From: Minisyncoccota bacterium
GTDB lineage: Bacteria > Patescibacteriota > Minisyncoccia > JAHIHE01 > JAGLIN01
Direction: 5' to 3'
DNA: 64,000 nucleotides
Assembly (NCBI GenBank): GCA_023142595.1
Contig: JAGLJF010000003.1
Coordinates: 3,873 to 67,872, forward strand
Part shown: in pieces, positions 2,478 through 52,795 of the stretch
How the letters are laid out: every line of letters begins with the position of its first letter
Position numbering within the stretch: position 1 is the stretch's first letter
Position numbers and translations under genes: made by a program
The notes under the pieces: model-generated
The model's database searches: none
Told to the model about the DNA's origin: nothing
Seen by the model: only the letters and a program-made list of their open reading frames with translations

Positions 2478-3014
2478 TTAATCATCTTCTTTAATTGTAA
2501 AATCATAAATCGAATATCTTTCAAAACAATCACTCATCCATTCTTCACCTTTTTCTTTAATTATTCTGCTATAACTACAAAATTTACAATTCAAAACTTC
2601 TTCCTGCTTATTAACATATTTATGTTTTACCAAATTATGATGAATATAATTCAAATGCAATAGAAAATCTTTTTCATCTCGAAGACAATAATCCCAATAT
2701 TGATACCATACTTTTCTGCCTTTTTTGTTTGACATTTTATTCAACTCTTTCGAAGAGAGCGCGTGAAAATCTTTAATGAGATATTTTAAATCATTTCCCT
2801 TGTTCGTTTTAATTATAATATGATAATGATTATCTAAAATCACAAAAGCATAAAGCAAGTATTTATATCTTTCAAGAACATTGTTTAAAGTCTTTATAAT
2901 CACTTTCTTTTTGTCCTCAGTGTTAAAAATTTTTACACTTTTAACAGTTCTTGCTGAAATAAAATAAAATGTATTATCTTGATAAATATGTAAAGGGCTG
3001 TGCTTTTTATACAT
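2478..3014 (-). mobile_element. REP-associated tyrosine transposase (RAYT, IS200/IS605-like HuH Y1 transposase)
   Basis: HuH motif NHYHIII. C-terminal tyrosine region VWYQYWDYCLRDEKDFLLHLNYIHHNLVKH. Flanked by cognate REP hairpins. Confidence 0.7.
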
Positions 3015-3052
3015 TTATTTTATATTAATAATTTTCGCTAAACCGCTGGAGC

Positions 3053-3080
3053 GTTAAACGAAGAGATAACGAAGTTTAAC
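3053..3080. repeat. REP hairpin family A, copy 3
   Basis: Same palindrome downstream of the RAYT gene. Confidence 0.75.
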
Positions 3081-3146
3081 TGCAGTATCACATCTTTTTC
3101 ATATTCGATAGAACTACATTTCATTTCGTTCTATACTCCAAAATTA

Positions 3147-4211
3147 TTATCTCAATTTCAAATTCGCATCTGCCTTTACGCTTTTCCAATTCTTAATCCC
3201 TTTATTTTTCTCAACATATTTATAAGCCGCAATGGCAATCATCAAAGCATTGTCTGATGTTAATTTTGACGTTGGGAAAGAAAAACCGCAAAGAGGTAAA
3301 TCTGATTTTATCGCTTCGGCTAATACTTTTTGCAATTTTTTATTTGCTGAAACCCCTCCTCCTAAAACAATGTTTTTTACTTTATGTTTTTGTGCCGCTT
3401 TGATGGTTTTAGAAACAAGCACATCAAAAGCCGCCTTCTGAAAAGATGCTACAACGTCTTGTTTATATTGGTCATTATAGAGACGCATAGATGCTGCATC
3501 TCTACAGCTTTGAACCTCATATAAAACCGCAGTTTTCAACCCTGAAAAAGAAAAATTATAATCGCCACTATTCATCATCGGTCGCGGAAATTTTATTTTT
3601 TCTTCATCTCCCTGTTTTGCCATTTTTTCAATAATAGGTCCCCCAGGATAACCGAGTTCCAAAAGCTTGGCAACCTTGTCAAAAGCTTCTCCCACCGCAT
3701 CATCCAAAGTTTCTCCAAGAACTTTATAATTCAAATCCTTTTTCATAAGAATGATTTGAGTGTGTCCACCAGAAACTGTCAGACAAAGAATCGGAAATTC
3801 TGCTTCCCATAATTTATTATTTTTTGCATCAGATTTCTTAAGCCAATTTGCATAAATATGTCCTTCAATGTGATGAATTCCAATTAATGGTTTCCCCAAA
3901 CCATAAGCAAGAGCTTTGGCAGCTCCAACACCAACCATCAAAGCAGGAATCAATCCAGGACCATTCGTCACGGCAACATAATCAATTTTTTTCTTGCTTA
4001 TTTTTGCATTACGAAAAGCTCTTTCCAAAATTGAAGTAATGTTTTTTAAATGCATTCTTGAAGCCAAAGACGGAACAACTCCACCAAATTTACTATGCAT
4101 TTTGACTTGAGAAGAAACTATATTTGCCAAAACCTTAGCACCTCCATTTTTAAATTCAACAATAGCAACCGCTGTTTCATCACAAGAAGTTTCAATCGAC
4201 AAAATAATCAT
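3147..4211 (-). CDS. tsaD: tRNA N6-adenosine threonylcarbamoyltransferase TsaD (Kae1/YgjD family)
   Basis: MIILSIETSCDETAVAIV start. HxxH metal site (GIHHIEGHIY). Full-length family similarity. Confidence 0.85.
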   Translation of the reverse strand: MIILSIETSCDETAVAIVEFKNGGAKVLANIVSSQVKMHSKFGGVVPSLASRMHLKNITSILERAFRNAKISKKKIDYVAVTNGPGLIPALMVGVGAAKALAYGLGKPLIGIHHIEGHIYANWLKKSDAKNNKLWEAEFPILCLTVSGGHTQIILMKKDLNYKVLGETLDDAVGEAFDKVAKLLELGYPGGPIIEKMAKQGDEEKIKFPRPMMNSGDYNFSFSGLKTAVLYEVQSCRDAASMRLYNDQYKQDVVASFQKAAFDVLVSKTIKAAQKHKVKNIVLGGGVSANKKLQKVLAEAIKSDLPLCGFSFPTSKLTSDNALMIAIAAYKYVEKNKGIKNWKSVKADANLKLR

Positions 4212-9891: not shown

Positions 9892-11163
9892 ATGAATAAT
9901 AACAAAAAAACAACCTTCCTTTCTCTTGGCGCTGAATCTATAGGAAGATTTGCTGTTTATTCTGACGACAGTGTTTTTGTTTCCGAAAATTTTGGCGATT
10001 TACTGAATGAAAATAATTTCAAAAATTATGAGAAAGCCGTTCTAAAACAAATTAAAATAAAGAAGCCTAATGTGATTTTGACAGATTTGCATCCGCTTTA
10101 TGTTTCAACGGTTTTAGGAGAAGAATTATCAAAAAAACTTCAAATTCCACACATCAAAATTCAACATCATCTTGCCCATGTTTTCTCTGCAGTTGGGGAT
10201 AAATTTTGCCATTCTAACCCTAACAATTGTAATTCTGAGATTAATATTTGTCATCCTGAGCTTGTCGAAGGATTTCAGTCCGTTGAGACTACAAGAGATT
10301 CTTCGACTCCGCTCCGCTCCGCTCAGAATGACAGTAATAATTTTAGACTTGATATAAAATACTCTTTACCAAATACTTTCTACGGCATTGCTTCTGATGG
10401 CACGGGTTTAGGTTTTGATGGGAACATCTGTGGTGGAGAGGTTTTTGAATTTAAAAATACAAAATCTATAAAACAGCCTCTGCACCAAGTTCAAAATAGC
10501 AGTATAAAAAGAATTGGCTCGCTTGAAGAACAAACTATGCTTGGCGGAGATTTAGCAGTCAAAGAACCGGCTCGTATGCTCATTAGCATTCTTTCAAAAT
10601 TTCTGCCGAAAGAAAAAACATATGAAAATGTGGAAAAACATTATTCTAAAAACGAATTTGAACTTCTTTATAATCAACTTCAACAAGATTTCAATTGCCA
10701 AACAACAACAAGCACGGGAAGAATTTTAGATGCTGTTTCAGTTTTGCTTGACTTTGCAAAAAACGAACGAAAATCAAAACATGAAGCGACAAAACTTCTT
10801 GAAGAAAAATCTGCTATTCCGTATAAACTTAATCCAAAAATTACATTCGATAAAGATTATAACAGATATATTTTACAAACAACACCTCTTTTTGAATATT
10901 TATTAAAAAACATCAATAAAGATAAAAAAAGGCTTGCCACAACTGCACAATTATATCTTGCTCAAGGGTTTTTGGAAATTATCAATAAAAATTCAAATAA
11001 TCAAAACAGTAAAATCTTTTTCGCTGGCGGAATAGCGAATAATCAAATTATGTCCTCATATCTGGAAAATAATAATGTTTATACATCAAAAAAAATCCCT
11101 CGTGGAGACGAAGGACTTGCATTCGGTCAAATTATATATTATTTGTCTAACTATATAAATTAA
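9892..11163 (+). CDS. HypF C-terminal (Kae1/YgjD-like carbamoyltransferase) domain protein; lacks the acylphosphatase, Zn-finger and YrdC domains of full HypF
   Basis: LGAE..., DLHPLY and QHHLAHVFSA align with the HypF Kae1-like domain. Convergent with hypE, 7 nt apart. Contains an in-frame MITE (10250..10333). Confidence 0.55.
   Translation: MNNNKKTTFLSLGAESIGRFAVYSDDSVFVSENFGDLLNENNFKNYEKAVLKQIKIKKPNVILTDLHPLYVSTVLGEELSKKLQIPHIKIQHHLAHVFSAVGDKFCHSNPNNCNSEINICHPELVEGFQSVETTRDSSTPLRSAQNDSNNFRLDIKYSLPNTFYGIASDGTGLGFDGNICGGEVFEFKNTKSIKQPLHQVQNSSIKRIGSLEEQTMLGGDLAVKEPARMLISILSKFLPKEKTYENVEKHYSKNEFELLYNQLQQDFNCQTTTSTGRILDAVSVLLDFAKNERKSKHEATKLLEEKSAIPYKLNPKITFDKDYNRYILQTTPLFEYLLKNINKDKKRLATTAQLYLAQGFLEIINKNSNNQNSKIFFAGGIANNQIMSSYLENNNVYTSKKIPRGDEGLAFGQIIYYLSNYIN
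10250..10333. repeat. Family-3 MITE (gtcatcctgagcttgtcgaaggat...ctcagaatgaca) inserted in-frame within the hypF-Cterm CDS
   Basis: Same termini as the tandem copies at 58877-59096. Translated as ...ICHPELVEGFQSVETTRDSSTPLRSAQND... Confidence 0.7.
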
Positions 11164-12550: not shown

Positions 12551-12945
12551 ATTTTGACAGATAAATCTGTCTCTGAAGATATCAACTTATCAACATAGGT
12601 TGCTCTGTCTTCTTTTTTTATCCCAAATATTTTAAGGAATCTTGATTATCTAAAAACCTATAACGATAAAGAACAGAATTCCTATTTCCTGTCATTTTGT
12701 GGGAGTAATAACGACGAGAAATCTGTGAATAGTATTAGTCTAAAATTAATTAGTTTTCAAACCCCCTAGCCCCCTTATCAGGGGGAACGAGACTTAATTG
12801 GTTTATAGATCTCTAAATTACTTCGCGCATTTCAATAATTCACAGCAATCAACTTCAAAGCGTCGCTCTTGACAAGAATCTCAATTCGTGTTAGGATTAG
12901 GTGTAAAAGTCTTTTGTAAGGCTTTTTTAATTATTAATTTAATAT

Positions 12946-23057: not shown

Positions 23058-23166
23058 TGTCATCCTGAACTTGTTTCAGGATCTTTCGTAATATTAGTAT
23101 CATTCTAATAATCTCACAAAACTAGAAGTTGCATACGACAGATTCTAAACTAAATTCAGAATGACA
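23058..23166. mobile_element. Family-1 MITE, short variant (TIRs TGTCATCCTGAA...TTCAGAATGACA, each a hairpin)
   Basis: Terminal inverted repeats and internal hairpins shared with copies at 24594, 31881, 42692, 44157, 44984, 50067. Confidence 0.7.
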
Positions 23167-24593: not shown

Positions 24594-24703
24594 TGTCATC
24601 CTGAACTTGTTTCAGGATCTTTTGTTTTATGGGCAATGTTTCTAATAATTTCACAAAACTAGAAATTGCAATCGACAGATTCTGAAATAAATTCAGAATG
24701 ACA
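24594..24703. mobile_element. Family-1 MITE, short variant
   Basis: TGTCATCCTGAACTTGTTTCAGGATC ... GATTCTGAAATAAATTCAGAATGACA. Confidence 0.7.
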
Positions 24704-27699: not shown

Positions 27700-28536
27700 A
27701 TGCTTTCAAAAGAAGAAATTCAAAAAATATTCAAAACTCCAAACATGGCAATTCTCAAAAGCTTGGGACAGAATTTTTTGATTGACGAAACTGTTTTGAA
27801 AAATATAATTACTTGTTCAGATTTAAATAAAGATGGCGTTGTAATTGAGATTGGTCCAGGACTTGGAACTTTGACTGAAGAGCTTTCAAAAAAATGTAAA
27901 AAAGTTATTGCCATCGAAAAGGACAATGAGTTTGCGCAAATGCTTGAAGGAAAATTTGAAAATGTGGAAGTGATTAATGGTGATATTCTGCAAATGAATA
28001 TTAATGAGCTGGTTCATAAATATTCTCAAAACGGAAAATTCAAACTTGTTTCCAACATCCCCTATTATATTACCTCTCCAATTATAAAATTATTTCTAGA
28101 AAATGCCATCCAACCAGAAGTCATTGTTTTGTTGATGCAAAAAGAAGTGGCTCAAAGAATTTGTGAAAAACCAGGAAAACTGAGTATGATTGCGCTAGGC
28201 GTTCAAGTTTATGGAGAACCTGAAATTGTCGGTTTCGTTAAAAATACTTCTTTCTATCCAGCGCCAAAAGTTGATTCGGCAATTTTGAAAATAAAAAATA
28301 TAAAACGAGAATTTTCTGACGAATATTATCAAAAGTTATTTCGAATTATGAAAATTGGTTTTTCATCCAAAAGAAAAAAATTATTGAACAATCTTTCAGC
28401 AGGTTTGCAAATCGAAAAAAAGGAAGCAGAAAAATTTCTTAATCAGACAGAGATCGATTTGAAAGTCCGCGCGCAAGAATTGAGCATTGAACAATGGGAA
28501 AAATTAATGGAAGTTTACACGACCGTAGAGACGTAG
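27700..28536 (+). CDS. rsmA: 16S rRNA (adenine1518/1519-N6)-dimethyltransferase RsmA/KsgA
   Basis: LGQNFLID motif, SAM-binding VIEIGPGLGTLT, NIPYYI motif. The stop codon lies inside a REP-B hairpin. Confidence 0.85.
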   Translation: MLSKEEIQKIFKTPNMAILKSLGQNFLIDETVLKNIITCSDLNKDGVVIEIGPGLGTLTEELSKKCKKVIAIEKDNEFAQMLEGKFENVEVINGDILQMNINELVHKYSQNGKFKLVSNIPYYITSPIIKLFLENAIQPEVIVLLMQKEVAQRICEKPGKLSMIALGVQVYGEPEIVGFVKNTSFYPAPKVDSAILKIKNIKREFSDEYYQKLFRIMKIGFSSKRKKLLNNLSAGLQIEKKEAEKFLNQTEIDLKVRAQELSIEQWEKLMEVYTTVET

Positions 28537-28553
28537 CAATGCTGCGTCTCTAC
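28525..28553. repeat. REP hairpin family B (GTAGAGACGyAGCAATGCTGCGTCTCTAC), copy 1
   Basis: Near-perfect 29-bp palindrome. Three copies around/in the second RAYT. Confidence 0.75.
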
Positions 28554-28585
28554 AACAATAGATAATATAAATTAAAAATTTTGAT

Positions 28586-29203
28586 ATGTCTCGGCTATAT
28601 AAGAATAAATTCAAAACTGAATCAACGAGATTGAAAAAATGGGACTATTCACAGAATGGTTTTTATTTTGTGACGATTTGCACGAATAATCATCAGTTGT
28701 TTTTTGGTGATGTAAAAAAATCAGAATCAGAACATTGTCCAATTTTTGAAATGAAAAAATCGCCCATTGGCAAAATCGCCGAAAAATATTGGTTAGAAAT
28801 TCCAAAACATTTTTCAAATGTAAAATTAGATGTATTTGTAATTATGCCAAACCATTTACACGGGGTAATTGAAATTTGTGATGATATTGTGATTGATAAA
28901 AATAAACCGTGCAAACATGTAGAGACGCAGCAATGCTGCGTCTCTACAACAACAAATAATGAATCAAAAACATTTTATAGATTAATTCCAAAATCACTGC
29001 CTGTTATTATTCGCTCATTTAAATCAATTTGTACAAAAACAATAAATCAGAAATTTGATGATAGAAATTTTTCCTGGCAATCGAAATACTATGATCATAT
29101 TATTAGAGATGAAAAATCATTAGACGAAATCAGAAAATATATTATTGATAATCCCGCAAAATGGGATTTGGATAAGAATGTTGTTGAGAATTTTTATAAA
29201 TAG
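28586..29203 (+). mobile_element. Second REP-associated tyrosine transposase (RAYT, IS200-like) carrying its own REP hairpin in-frame
   Basis: HuH motif MPNHLHGVIEI. Catalytic tyrosine region WQSKYYDHIIRDEKSLDEIRKYIIDNP. REP-B copies at 28525, 28919 (inside ORF) and 29241. Confidence 0.65.
28919..28947. repeat. REP hairpin family B, copy 2, located in-frame inside the RAYT ORF (encodes HVETQQCCVSTT)
   Basis: Same palindrome. The ORF remains open through it. Confidence 0.7.
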
Positions 29204-29240
29204 CAAAATCCATCAGATTCAATTTGTGAAAATTTATATG

Positions 29241-29269
29241 GTAGAGACGTAGCAATGCTGCGCCTCTAC
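29241..29269. repeat. REP hairpin family B, copy 3
   Basis: GTAGAGACGTAGCAATGCTGCGCCTCTAC. Confidence 0.7.
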
Positions 29270-29288
29270 AAAGAATTTCTACTTGGGG

Positions 29289-29338
29289 TTGACATGTTTT
29301 TAATAGGGCTTGACAAGTTCTGTTTTTTTATGTACAAT
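29289..29338 (+). promoter_or_regulatory. Strong sigma70-like promoter (tandem TTGACA boxes; TTGACA-17-TACAAT) upstream of a ~265-nt leader
   Basis: CTTGACAagttctgtttttttatgTACAAT, with a second TTGACA 21 bp upstream. The first downstream long ORF starts at 29610 with SD AAGGAG. Confidence 0.45.
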
Positions 29339-29609
29339 GTAGAGTTCTAATGATGGGAAGTAGTACCTAAAATCTATTGAAGAACAAAGGGGAAATTGCA
29401 GATTATCGCTTAATTTACAAAACTTTATTTACCACTATTAGAACCTGTCGGTTTTGCAAAAACAAAACAGACAGATTTGTCGATAATTTCGGCAAAGGAT
29501 TGATCATTAATAAATAGCCAAAAAAGATTCGCAATGCGTAAAAGCGTAAAAGGAATTTTTGATGACTTAGAGAATAAAATATACAAAAAAAACTAAGGAG
29601 CGATGAAGA

Positions 29610-31064
29610 ATGGTATCAAATGAATATATCCCAGTAATTGTTTTTGTTGTTTTTGTTGTAATCTCTATAGCTTTTCTGTCTCGTTTGTACAAATGCTATG
29701 GAACAACTCAAAAATTAAAAGCAGAAAGAGAAAAAACGCAAGAAGAAAGAAGAGATATCGAAACCAACATTAGAAGGTCTCTGTCAGAAGGGATCGATAT
29801 TCGTCAGGAAAATGAAGATAACCGAAAGAGGCTTGCCGATCAAATAGATAAATTAAGAATAAAAGAAGTAGCTGAATGGAAAAAAATTATATTAGTAGGA
29901 ATAATAACCGCTTCATTTTTTGTTCTGTCGGTTGTGTTGTTAATTGAATTAATTTTATTTAGCAGCATAGGACAATACAGGCCTTTTATGTTTACATTAA
30001 CAGAAACGACGGTAATTCTGATAATTGTATGGATTATCTACAGAATTATTCTTAGTTCGACAAAAATCACATTAAAAAATAATGGGGTTGTTCTTTACTT
30101 TGATATACCAGACAAACAAGTGGGCGAAGGACCTATTTTTGCATGGTTTAAAGATGTGAGAATACCAGGAACAGATATCATAATTTCTAGAATAATAGAA
30201 ATTGAAAGAAAGGAAATTGTGTTCGATGTTCACAAAGATAAAACAATGTTGGCGGTCTCAGCTGATTCTACACAGCCCTTTTGGCTTGATGGTTATGTTA
30301 CATATAGAATAAAAGATATTGTCCAAACTATAATTACAACAGGAGAACATAGTCTTGATGGAATAAAGGACTATTTTGAAGGAAAAGAACAGGAGGCGTC
30401 TGTTGAAAATGAAGCCGGAGAAAAAGAAAAGATGAATATTAGAATGGGAGGTATTATAGATTTAACTTTCAGATCTTTTGTGAGAAATTTTTTCCGAGAA
30501 GCAGATAATTTTGGTATAAAAGATGGAGACACCGACGAAGTAGTAATCAATAAGGCGATTGGTGTGCAAGAACAACTTAGTAAGTCATTACACAGTCAGT
30601 TCGCATATCTTAAATATTTTGGAATAGAGCTTATGGCAACAGAAGCAACGGACATTAAGCCGTCTCAAGAAGTTGAAAATAGGCTCGTAAAAGCAAGAAC
30701 TAGCGCACAAGATATTGGCATAGCTACAAAAGAAAAAGATGCAGCTGTTGAAACAGGAAAAGTTGGACCTGAATTAATGAACATCTTTGAGAAAGATGCA
30801 AATTTTGTAATAACTCCAGAAATAAAAAGCGTTATAGCTCTCCTGACTATAAATGCTGATGCACTTAAAGGGGTTTTAGAGGGTTCGAACTTAAATATTG
30901 CATTGGTGCCAGCCATTAACAAACTTGCTGATGCAATTGGTGGCGGAAGTCCCACTTCTGCTGATACAAAAGACTTGGTGAATAAAGTTTTAAGCGAGAT
31001 TAAAAATGACCCACAAGGAATAAAAGCTGTTGTAGATCAAATAAAAAAAGCGAAAATGTTATAA
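29610..31064 (+). CDS. Membrane protein with SPFH/band-7-like domain (stomatin/prohibitin/flotillin superfamily), N-terminal coiled-coil and 3-4 TM helices
   Basis: FGIELMATEATDIKPSQEVENRLVKARTSAQDIGIATKEKDAAVETGK resembles the SPFH C-terminal helix region. An upstream beta-rich segment is SPFH-like. Confidence 0.45.
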   Translation: MVSNEYIPVIVFVVFVVISIAFLSRLYKCYGTTQKLKAEREKTQEERRDIETNIRRSLSEGIDIRQENEDNRKRLADQIDKLRIKEVAEWKKIILVGIITASFFVLSVVLLIELILFSSIGQYRPFMFTLTETTVILIIVWIIYRIILSSTKITLKNNGVVLYFDIPDKQVGEGPIFAWFKDVRIPGTDIIISRIIEIERKEIVFDVHKDKTMLAVSADSTQPFWLDGYVTYRIKDIVQTIITTGEHSLDGIKDYFEGKEQEASVENEAGEKEKMNIRMGGIIDLTFRSFVRNFFREADNFGIKDGDTDEVVINKAIGVQEQLSKSLHSQFAYLKYFGIELMATEATDIKPSQEVENRLVKARTSAQDIGIATKEKDAAVETGKVGPELMNIFEKDANFVITPEIKSVIALLTINADALKGVLEGSNLNIALVPAINKLADAIGGGSPTSADTKDLVNKVLSEIKNDPQGIKAVVDQIKKAKML

Positions 31065-31880: not shown

Positions 31881-32055
31881 TGTCATTCTGAACTTGATTC
31901 AGGATCTTCGTTAGGTTAGATTTTGACTTATACTATCTACACGATACTATTGTATAAAAAAATACAACTATGTTTTTTGTAATAATCTGGTTAGCGATTT
32001 ATAGGCTTGCTTTAATATATAAGAATAAAGATTCTGAACTAAATTCAGAATGACA
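31881..32055. mobile_element. Family-1 MITE, full-length (~175 bp)
   Basis: TIRs TGTCATTCTGAA / TTCAGAATGACA. Internal sequence about 80% identical to copies at 44157 and 44984. Confidence 0.75.
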
Positions 32056-42243: not shown

Positions 42244-42691
42244 TCCTTAAAAATATTTTTTGTTTATCATCGTTTCTTGATTCACCTCCATCTGTTTGGG
42301 TGAACTTTTTTAACTATCTTTTTTTCATTGTTAGTCTCGAAATAACAAATATATTATATTGCGATTCAACACAAAATTAATCTGCTTACGGGATTCTTCA
42401 TTTCTCTCAAAATGACGCATAAGTATATTGCTAAAATTTTGCAATCTGGGATCCACAGCCCTACGGGACTATGGAACCCTCGAAATAATATTATAAAAGA
42501 TAATTACAAAAATTCACCCAAAAGAATAATCAAATTGCTGGAAAACAAAAGATAAACTTATGGCTATTTTGTTTTTTTAAAAGAACATTTTCAAAATCAA
42601 CATAAGTTGACCCTCTCTCCTTCTCTACTCCAAAACTAGCACAAATATTTGTTTTTGTCAAGGTGGCTGGATGTGGACAGATTTTAGAGAT

Positions 42692-42803: not shown

Positions 42804-42970
42804 TATTTGTCATACTAAGAAGGAACGACAAAGTATACTGATAAAGTTTTGCAATCCGGGCTCCACAGCCCTACAGGACTATGGAGCCCTCAAACTAAAT
42901 TCAGAATAACAAAAATAAGACAACAAAAAACTGCCTCGCTTTTGCAAGACAGTTTTTCAAAAATTAATTT

Positions 42971-44156: not shown

Positions 44157-44335
44157 TGTCATCCTGAACTTGTTTCAGGATCTTTGTTAAATTAGGTTTT
44201 GATTTGTATCATATACACAATACTATTGTATATATAGAATAAACACAATATATTTTCTTAATGATACAGTTAGTGATTTATAGACTAGCTTTAATATAGG
44301 AAAACGACAGATTCTGAACTAAATTCAGAATGACA
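44157..44335. mobile_element. Family-1 MITE, full-length (~179 bp)
   Basis: TIRs and internal sequence shared with 31881 and 44984. Confidence 0.75.
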
Positions 44336-49858: not shown

Positions 49859-50066
49859 GGAGAATGATTTTAATATCTAAATATCTTAATAAATAGGTCT
49901 GCTGATTTACTTCTGGTTCCCCCTGATAAGGGGGTTGGGGGGTTTGAAAAATGGCTAAGAAAAACTGAATTATTTTTTTAAGATTGTGAAATTTTATCTC
50001 TTTTTATAAAAATTAGATGAAAATCAGCAGCCACTAGATATAACAAAATTAATATATTATCAGATA

Positions 50067-50248
50067 TGTCATCCTGAATAATGTCATGCTGAATTTATTT
50101 CAGTATTATTTCAGGATCTTCTGTTTTTTTAAATCTAAATTTTACTACAAAACACAATTCTTTTGTATATGACAAACCAATATTAGATGATTTATAGTTT
50201 ATGTTTATTGTAATATTCAACAGATTCTGAAATAAATTCAGAATGACA
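50067..50248. mobile_element. Family-1 MITE, full-length (~182 bp)
   Basis: TGTCATCCTGAATAATGTCATGCTGAA... ...GATTCTGAAATAAATTCAGAATGACA. Confidence 0.7.
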
Positions 50249-50286
50249 AGATGTGTTTTTTAAAAAATAAATAATATTAACAGAGC

Positions 50287-52690: not shown

Positions 52691-52795
52691 TGTCATCTCG
52701 AAATGAGTAGAACGATTGAGAAATCTAAAAATAGCAACAAATGAACTAAATTATATTTATAGATATCTCGTCGTTATTACTCCCACGAAATGACA
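52691..52795. mobile_element. Family-2 MITE
   Basis: TGTCATCTCGAAATGAGTAGAACGATTGAGAAATCT...CCCACGAAATGACA. Confidence 0.65.

Follow-up and report, generated by a model that had tools for sequence, protein, structure and literature searches.

The 64-kb stretch of DNA analyzed here (the window; positions 3,873-67,872 of contig JAGLJF010000003.1, assembly GCA_023142595.1, from a Minisyncoccota bacterium) contains a gene for a REP-associated tyrosine transposase (RAYT, or TnpAREP) at 28586-29203 on the plus strand, and within this gene lies an in-frame copy of its own cognate repetitive extragenic palindromic (REP) sequence, REP-B. A first-pass annotation, made from the sequence alone, had drawn attention to the embedded copy and considered it an odd arrangement, possibly self-regulatory or a recent self-insertion. 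Our results uphold the in-frame placement of a cognate REP in its RAYT, and neither the oddity nor the recent insertion. The arrangement is real, but it is the hallmark of a known RAYT subfamily, neither recent nor unusual, and the internal copy is most likely tolerated and kept uniform with its neighbors.

The RAYT gene and its REP-B hairpins

The window is AT-rich (31.6% G+C). The product of the RAYT open reading frame (ORF) is 100% identical to a protein from an NCBI metagenome-assembled genome (MAG) that is named 'transposase [Candidatus Pacebacteria bacterium]', and the host of the window is an uncultured bacterium of the candidate phyla radiation (CPR) / Paceibacteria. REP-B is a GTAG-footed palindrome of 29 nt, as first annotated, with the consensus GTAGAGACG(C/T)AGCAATGCTGCG(T/C)CTCTAC and the exact form GTAGAGACGCAGCAATGCTGCGTCTCTAC. 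Three plus-strand copies surround or occupy the RAYT gene at the positions originally reported. Copy 1 (GTAGAGACGTAGCAATGCTGCGTCTCTAC; 28525-28553) is upstream and ends 33 nt before the RAYT start codon (hairpin start at -61), copy 2 (28919-28947) is inside the gene, and copy 3 (GTAGAGACGTAGCAATGCTGCGCCTCTAC; 29241-29269) begins 38 nt past the stop codon; copies 1 and 3 both have the form GTAG...CTAC. They depart from the first-pass consensus at one, zero, and two positions, respectively, and none is expected by chance (no match in 100 dinucleotide-preserving shuffles; expectation 0). As single strands, all three form hairpins of 12-14 bp. Copy 1 has one T.G stem mismatch (folding free energy, dG, as single-stranded DNA -11.9 kcal/mol, z -5.2) and copy 3 has two stem mismatches (DNA dG -8.0 kcal/mol, z -3.9), while copy 2 is the sole perfect palindrome of the three (DNA dG -16.8 kcal/mol, z -8.5). 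In a promoter/terminator scan, no copy was scored as an intrinsic terminator, no T-run follows any of the three, and an Rfam search of 28300-29700 at E<=1 returned zero matches.

A looser search brought the total in the window to four, of which three are at the RAYT gene and two are intragenic. The fourth is a degenerate copy on the minus strand (3478-3504; dG -6.8), situated in frame within tsaD (ORF 3147-4211, minus), where it encodes CRDAASMRLY. Within the window, REP-B is a low-copy, gene-local repeat rather than an abundant REP. Neither here nor at the 65 loci described below does it show the high copy number, dispersal, and extragenic location by which REPs are classically defined; it is REP-like in its GTAG foot, its palindrome, and its linkage to a RAYT, yet it is no abundant genome-wide repeat.

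The RAYT itself is a 205-aa protein with an HUH motif (N89-H90-L91-H92; codons at 28850-28861), a WQ pair (W164-Q165), and a catalytic tyrosine, Tyr185 (29138-29140), in the sequence Y185-I-I-D-N189-P190. In an alignment of 40 RAYT homologs (A1), H90, H92, W164, Q165, Y185, and N189 are invariant and P190 is conserved in >=90%. Y185 would correspond to Tyr115, the catalytic residue of E. coli TnpAREP, which lies in a VDYIYINP motif. The alignment consists of two conserved blocks, one with the HUH motif and the other with WQ and the tyrosine, split by a hypervariable linker of ~10 to >100 residues. An AlphaFold model of the protein (mean predicted local distance difference test score, pLDDT, of 80) has a confident core, and its top PDB match by Foldseek is 4er8_A (E 1.6e-5, prob 1.00, root-mean-square deviation 2.7 A, template modeling score normalized to the target 0.59), i.e., the REP-associated tyrosine transposase of E. 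coli in complex with a REP hairpin; the next structural matches (ranks 2-30) are IS608, ISDra2, and IS200 transposases. Curated models just miss the protein because the linker splits the domain: Pfam PF01797 (Y1_Tnp) scored 22.8 bits against a cutoff of 23 and NCBIfam NF047646 (REP_Tyr_transpos) 59.4 against a cutoff of 80, both matching only the C-terminal half (residues 137-199). These sub-cutoff scores are a limit of the models and are outweighed by the motifs and the fold. We conclude that ORF 28586-29203 encodes a RAYT, as had been proposed, with predicted activity as an HUH/Y1 enzyme. By tblastn, the gene is single-copy within the window; the other RAYT present, at 2478-3014, belongs to a different subclass.

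The internal copy occupies a variable linker

Copy 2 is wholly contained in the RAYT ORF. From codon 112 it reads GTA GAG ACG CAG CAA TGC TGC GTC TCT ACA, i.e., VETQQCCVST (V112-T121), in agreement with the in-frame assignment. Residues 101-130 of the model have pLDDT values of 42-50 (<50 over 107-122) and lie between a strand (90-97) and a helix (138-156), so that the residues encoded by copy 2 fall in a predicted disordered linker that joins the HUH strand to helix alpha-C. When the protein was aligned to other RAYTs, the check recommended at first pass, the ~10 REP-encoded residues fell within the hypervariable insertion. It had been reasoned that homologs with the same residues but without similarity to REP would argue against an embedded repeat; the opposite was found, and VETQQCCVST is common because the DNA hairpin is common.

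To place this copy in a wider context, we collected 80 homologous loci (L001-L080) from one-genome-per-species contigs, 81 with the window, and covered +/-10 kb at each. The loci come from CPR, Cyanobacteria, Bacteroidota, Chloroflexota, Ignavibacteriota, Nitrospirota, Gammaproteobacteria, and others. A hairpin with a stem of >=10 bp was present in the gene at 65 of the 81 loci, at a density of 1.69/kb as compared with 0.26/kb in 1.24 Mb of flanking DNA, and at 59 loci it was located between HUH and WQ. Since a GTAG...CTAC hairpin occupies the same linker in 59-65 of 81 family members, and has been published for TnpA-Y1 subclass 2.4 (PMC6006769), the arrangement is not odd for this family.

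Strict GTAG...CTAC palindromes of 28 or 29 nt were found at 44 loci. Their reading frames are restricted: 33 are read as GTA-GAG-ACG and 14 as xGT-AGA-GAC-G, and none is read in the frame that contains TAG. The peptides at this place in the homologs are accordingly of two unrelated kinds, i.e., VETQQCCVST, VETRHCLVST, and VETLQCNVST in the first frame and RDEALPRLY, RDVALQRLY, and RDVACNVST in the second. The GTAG/CTAC feet are invariant, while seven of 12 stem pairs have changed on both sides across loci, giving inner stems such as GTTGCA/TGCAAC, GCAGCA/TGCTGC, GCAAAA/TTTTGC, and CACGGCA/TGCCGTG, among others. With translation in either stop-free frame and paired changes in the inner stem, what is conserved in the internal hairpin is the DNA rather than the peptide. 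The covariation statistics of the corresponding alignment (A2; 98.5% paired, 0/500 shuffles) are largely circular, as the hairpins had been selected as palindromes, and we used instead the qualitative variation of the inner stem against the invariant feet together with the unbiased comparison of densities given above. A functional Cys-rich peptide, VETQQCCVST, was also considered and was ruled out by the frame switching and low pLDDT. Not all members carry the hairpin: some with intact catalytic motifs are hairpin-free, with linkers down to 48-53 aa, and decayed relics (e.g., EDAMNRVST, SDIASNVST) are common, forming a continuum from perfect to decayed. In L020, L042, and L050, second hairpin copies occur elsewhere in the ORF.

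The family also bears on an mRNA-level explanation, in which the hairpin would act as a stable mid-message stem-loop, holding down the amount of a potentially toxic nuclease either by slowing translation or by guiding RNase processing. REPs are known to affect the mRNA stability and translation of adjacent genes, and in the RNA fold a 14-bp stem does dominate the 111 nt around copy 2 (-28.3 kcal/mol, z -5.45). Three observations make this explanation quite improbable, however. Internal stem mismatches are not enriched for the G.U-compatible G:T on the sense strand (9 vs. 22 A:C), the strictly conserved GTAG/CTAC feet mark recognition of DNA by a protein rather than folding of RNA, and the same hairpins occur in flanks that are untranscribed or differently transcribed.

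Syntenic relatives and gene-local clustering

Four metagenomic contigs (L081-L084) encode RAYTs 59-75% identical to that of the window in the same neighborhood, (UvrD)-rsmA-RAYT-Band_7. This conserved synteny indicates vertical inheritance of the RAYT gene rather than hopping. The hairpin trio of the window recurs in L082, L083, and L084, with copies upstream (-60 to -100), internal (+304 to +378), and downstream (+9 to +54). In L081 the inner stem has switched to GCGAT...ATCGC, in the upstream and internal copies alike, and in three of four loci, the window included, a single central loop base is common to all three copies (A in the window, G in L082, C in L083). From these comparisons, the three REP copies evolve in concert. 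In the orthologs, the codons of the hairpin are 93-97% identical, whereas third positions of identical-amino-acid codons elsewhere in the gene are 67-76% identical.

The same relatives bear on the proposal of a recent, lineage-specific self-insertion. Copies 1 and 2 of the window share an extended similarity of 58 nt, with 20 of 30 bases identical beyond the hairpin (random pairs of 30-mers: mean 8.5, P(>=20) ~1e-4), which would fit such an event. The internal hairpin is, however, found in the syntenic orthologs at 59-75% protein identity, and the extended similarity is absent from three orthologous loci (8-10/30); a fresh duplication linking copies 1 and 2 was set aside for that reason. Judged by sequence comparison, a recent self-insertion in the genome of the window is excluded. 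Coincidence, or a motif driven by the protein (Cys-rich VETQQCCVST), fares no better, given that the two frames yield unrelated peptides across the family, that the chance expectation is 0, and that the region is predicted to be disordered. We regard recent insertion, chance, and a protein-driven motif, taken together, as scarcely credible.

In two relatives, tandem half-REP duplications precede the full internal hairpin (L083 556-616; L084 650-736). The duplicated unit is the left REP half together with the sequence 5' to it (GCAAACAyGTAGAGACGCAGCAAcc), and the repeats read KHVETQQPCKHVETQ... and KHVETQQPCKHVETQQ...; they suggest slippage or abortive strand transfer at the hairpin.

To determine how closely the repeat is tied to its gene, the internal hairpin of each of 65 loci was used as the query for cognate copies. 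Densities, measured from the gene ends, were 1.10 copies per kb at <300 bp, 0.023 at 300-1000 bp, and 0.0043 at >1 kb, i.e., cognate hairpins are clustered ~250-fold within 300 bp of the RAYT gene. Flanks matched the internal hairpin of their own locus (<=3 mismatches) at 18 of 44 loci, while comparisons with the flanks of other loci gave 14 matches in 352. At 24 of the 44 strict-hairpin loci there was no flanking copy (<=4 mismatches) within 600 bp, and many of these have perfect internal palindromes. The picture these sequences suggest is one of continuing gain, homogenization, decay, and loss of hairpins in a permissive loop. Internal hairpins also appeared more perfect than flanking ones (0.47 vs. 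1.06 mismatches), a comparison that is biased by the choice of the internal copy as reference and was not used.

A tolerated copy or a selected element

We consider it fairly probable that the locus is a REPtron of TnpA-Y1 subclass 2.4/Group 4 in which REP copies are seeded and renewed near their own gene and the internal copy is a tolerated passenger. Such a unit would comprise a single-copy, vertically inherited gene for an HUH/Tyr single-stranded DNA nuclease and a cognate 'double-foot' REP of 28-29 nt (GTAG stem ... stem CTAC). By analogy with enzymes of Groups 2 and 3, the RAYT would recognize the hairpin, folded as a single strand, along with its GTAG guide and would cut and rejoin DNA beside the hairpin; owing to the symmetry of the double-foot palindrome, either strand could offer the same substrate. 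If the enzyme acts mostly near its own gene, a cis-preference that we assume, it would seed and replace REP copies around and within that gene. Selection would remove intragenic copies unless they sit in a tolerant loop and are read in one of the two TAG-free frames, and repeated exchange with neighboring copies would keep the copies uniform. The internal REP would then be a tolerated, actively renewed target-site copy, with no function of its own required. Since the linker that holds it is predicted to be disordered, toleration is plausible on structural grounds.

Several points weigh against this account. The internal hairpin is found in about three-quarters of the family, across many phyla. 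It is more conserved in the orthologs than synonymous sites are (93-97% vs. 67-76%), despite lying in the most variable part of the protein, and 24 of 44 loci have no copy within 600 bp although many of their internal hairpins are still perfect palindromes. Furthermore, the biochemistry comes from Group 2 and Group 3 enzymes only, cis-preference is an assumption, and the evidence covers 64 kb of this genome and +/-10 kb around each locus rather than genome-wide copy numbers.

Much of this is what would be expected if the internal hairpin were a selected cis-acting element, i.e., the RAYT's own binding site, for negative autoregulation or for anchoring the enzyme to its REP, with the flanking copies secondary. 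The element would act on extruded or single-stranded DNA, possibly on the template strand, and anchoring would possibly keep specificity and target inseparable. Of the three copies, the internal one persists best, being retained at the loci that lack flanking copies; its conservation exceeds what synonymous sites would predict; it holds a fixed position in 59 of 81 diverse members; and it is the only perfect palindrome among the window's three copies. On the other hand, members with intact motifs and no hairpin exist, as does the continuum from perfect to decayed; copies occur elsewhere in the gene (L020, L042, L050); template switching can restore the perfection of a palindrome neutrally; and no promoter, terminator, or Rfam element coincides with the internal hairpin. 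We judge a selected element of this kind to be possible but doubtful.

The stem mismatches are relevant here as well. On the sense strand, internal hairpins have 22 A:C and 9 G:T mismatches, while flanking hairpins (within 400 bp) have 15 A:C and 32 G:T (Fisher p=0.001), an asymmetry confounded by the fact that C->T at position 10 creates a stop in frame 0 and by the counting of related loci as independent. The opposite asymmetries could reflect opposite functional strands, which would favor a selected element, or could be an artifact of coding constraint and of related loci. In its strongest form, the argument for selection would make the intragenic hairpin the primary component of Group 4 REPtrons, either a template-strand autoregulation site or a 'master copy' that cannot be lost. 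This we think rather unlikely; if true, it would explain both the perfect palindromes without flanking copies and the opposite mismatch asymmetry.

Comparison with known systems

In the classification of Quentin, Siguier, Chandler, and Fichant (2018; BMC Genomics 19:475, PMC6006769), TnpA-Y1 subclass 2.4 corresponds to the Group 4 RAYTs of Bertels, Gallie, and Rainey (2017). Its description there includes 'double foot' REPs (5' GT[AG]G and 3' C[TC]AC) that flank tnpAREP and are inserted in frame within it, the internal REPs being regarded as insertions of low consequence. Group 4 RAYTs are common in Cyanobacteria, Chlorobia, and Caldilineae, and their flanking 16-mers are only modestly repeated (Bertels et al., 2017, GBE 9:2110). 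The RAYT of the window resembles the subclass, as described, in its NHxH HUH motif, WQ, YIxxNP, length of ~200 aa, and long variable beta3-alphaC insertion, and also in its double-foot flanking REPs and the in-frame REP between HuH and Y. Low copy number and wide taxonomic spread are further traits given for the subclass, and the 64-kb window has one RAYT of this type. Minor departures from the printed consensus are NHLH vs. NH[IFV]H (leucine is hydrophobic but outside the three residues listed), YIIDNP vs. YIxNNP (D rather than N as fourth residue), and an H90-Y185 spacing of 95 aa in a protein of 205 aa vs. ~88 aa (HuH-Y) and ~194 aa. The host differs, too, in that the taxa named for subclass 2.4 in that description include no CPR lineage, and the window derives from a CPR/Paceibacteria MAG. 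Every testable defining feature of the group was found in the window locus, which is a new CPR member of TnpA-Y1 subclass 2.4/Group 4.

The best-characterized relative in structural terms is E. coli TnpAREP (YafM, 4ER8; Group 2/subclass 2.2), which has the same fold, HUH motif, and tyrosine and a single-copy gene flanked by REPs with a GTAG guide. Its REPs are, however, asymmetric (one foot, bulged stem) and abundant genome-wide, their reverse complement is no substrate, and none is inside the gene. The REP of the window, in contrast, is a symmetric perfect palindrome, low-copy and gene-local, with one copy intragenic. Enzymes of Groups 2 and 3 have been shown to bind both the folded single strand and the GTAG guide, with cleavage at CT or CA beside the hairpin (Corneloup et al., 2021, PMC8266576); by analogy, the RAYT of the window would be expected to bind a folded single strand and to cut at a dinucleotide beside the hairpin.

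Clear structural similarity also extends to the TnpA proteins of the IS200/IS605 family (IS608, ISDra2), Y1 HUH enzymes that recognize hairpins near both gene ends as folded single strands. The RAYT of the window differs from these in having no tnpB, in having identical hairpins at its ends instead of a distinct left end and right end, in the third, internal hairpin, and in its tyrosine motif (Y...NP vs. Y...Q). An IS200-like mobile element was ruled out by the conserved synteny, the single copy in the window, and the identical hairpins on both sides; there was no sign of mobility of the RAYT gene in L081-L084, where synteny is kept, or in the window, where it occurs once.

These results extend Group 4 REPtrons to the reduced genomes of CPR bacteria. 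As additions to the published description of subclass 2.4 (PMC6006769), they provide the use of two stop-free frames only, the matching of internal and flanking copies within a locus, the ~250-fold clustering, the conservation above synonymous sites, and the internal copies without flanking ones. They reveal no new kind of system, but they make it testable whether the internal hairpin is a passenger or a control/anchor site for a domesticated single-stranded DNA nuclease. For annotation, VETQQCCVST, RDEALPRLY, and RDVACNVST in 'transposase' proteins should be recognized as translated REP hairpins and not as protein motifs, and RAYT genes that bear the hairpin are missed by Pfam Y1_Tnp and NF047646.

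REP-B copies at rsmA and tsaD

Upstream of the RAYT gene is rsmA/ksgA (27700-28536, plus), encoding the 16S rRNA adenine dimethyltransferase (Pfam RrnaAD, 192 bits, 9.8e-57, residues 20-273 of 278). The first-pass annotation placed copy 1 over its last codons and TAG stop, and the sequence bears this out: the last sense codons, GTA GAG ACG (VET), are positions 1-9 of copy 1, and the stop TAG (28534-28536) is positions 10-12. The stop is not supplied by the GTAG foot but by a C->T stem variant at REP position 10, the source of the T.G mismatch in copy 1. Copy 3 has the same variant, while the internal copy has CAG (Gln) at this point, as it must, because a TAG there would terminate the RAYT. 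In the relative L082, where the REP is at 3479-3507, the rsmA stop (3480-3482) is exactly the TAG of the GTAG foot of the upstream REP. The overlap of rsmA and REP is therefore conserved and yet achieved in two ways, L082 using the TAG of the foot and the window a stem-variant TAG in another frame. The overlap is a known by-product of a REP abutting the end of a gene: GTAG termini of REPs often supply the TAG stop of flanking ORFs, and intragenic REPs have been catalogued (Di Nocera, De Gregorio, and Rocco, 2013, BMC Genomics 14:522, PMC3733652). The rsmA stop and the tsaD copy are of these kinds, with the differences that in the window the stop comes from the stem variant and not the foot, and that the main intragenic copy is hosted by the REP's own enzyme.

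In the promoter scan, the interval from copy 1 to the start of the RAYT gene had no convincing plus-strand promoter; the sole strong promoter in the scan (29310-29338) belongs to the downstream Band_7 gene. A role for copy 1 as the rsmA terminator and an overlap of a REP with the RAYT promoter were both dropped after this promoter/terminator scan. By eye only, a TATAAT box can be seen right after the upstream REP in L082 and L084, and TGTAAT in L083.

The tsaD copy is the only REP-B copy in the window away from the RAYT locus. It is read in the second frame and coincides with nine extra surface-loop residues relative to T. maritima TsaD (6nak; alignment gaps). Its presence shows that REP-B has on at least one occasion reached a site far from the RAYT gene, and that a copy need not lie in that gene to survive in frame in a loop. 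Short palindromic repeats tolerated in frame in surface loops of proteins are reportedly known as well from Rickettsia, in the palindromic elements said to have been described by Ogata and colleagues in 2000.

Other repeats and neighboring elements

A second palindromic family is far more abundant in the window, with at least 20 sites matching TGTCATyCTGAAyTTGwTTCAGrATGACA, and has no GTAG foot. Example sites are 1283-1310, 1392-1419, 10249-10275, 23058-23085, 24594-24620, 31881-31908, 44157-44184, and 50220-50249. An inverted doublet of this family lies in frame in a FemAB-family ORF (894-2204, minus), where it is read as CHSEFISES and ILNQVQNDS, and the gap that separates the two HypF Kae1-like subdomains of ORF 9892-11163 is taken up by a related copy (ICHPELVEGF...). 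Given its presence inside the FemAB-family and HypF-like genes, in-frame palindromes are tolerated elsewhere in the same genome.

The other RAYT of the window (2478-3014, minus) has an NHYH HUH motif and scores above the cutoff of NF047646 (95.7 bits). A ~106-nt repeat with 75% identity flanks it in three copies (2220-2325, 2374-2479, and 3039-3144) and contains short hairpins, one of them GTAG-footed (GTAGAAT...ATTCTAC) and others beginning with GTAA or ATAG. This RAYT and its ~106-nt repeat are a separate REPtron.

Downstream of the RAYT, the Band_7/SPFH gene is preceded by a near-consensus promoter, TTGACA-17-TACAAT (29310-29338), and by a structured leader of ~270 nt that is conserved in the syntenic relatives (window 29310-29609; L081 1180-1548; L082 4250-4528; L083 941-1223; L084 1045-1316). 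The leader comprises a 13-bp stem, GTTCTrATGATGG...CCAyCATyAGAAC, around a variable insert, followed by a hairpin (29442-29477) and a GTCGG-TAAT-CCGAC stem. Eleven predicted pairs keep pairing through two-sided changes in the five sequences, and Rfam gave no match. From its sequence, the leader is a possible candidate for a cis-regulatory element.

Further small repeat families with GC-rich hairpins, e.g., CCACAGCCCTACGGGACTATGGA and AACCCCCTAGCCCCCTTATCAGGGGGAAC, were found at 1786-1853, 42421-42488, and 42831-42898; at 12754-12797 and 49907-49950; and at 12690-12736 and 52749-52795. Several distinct families of palindromic repeats are thus present in this small, AT-rich genome.

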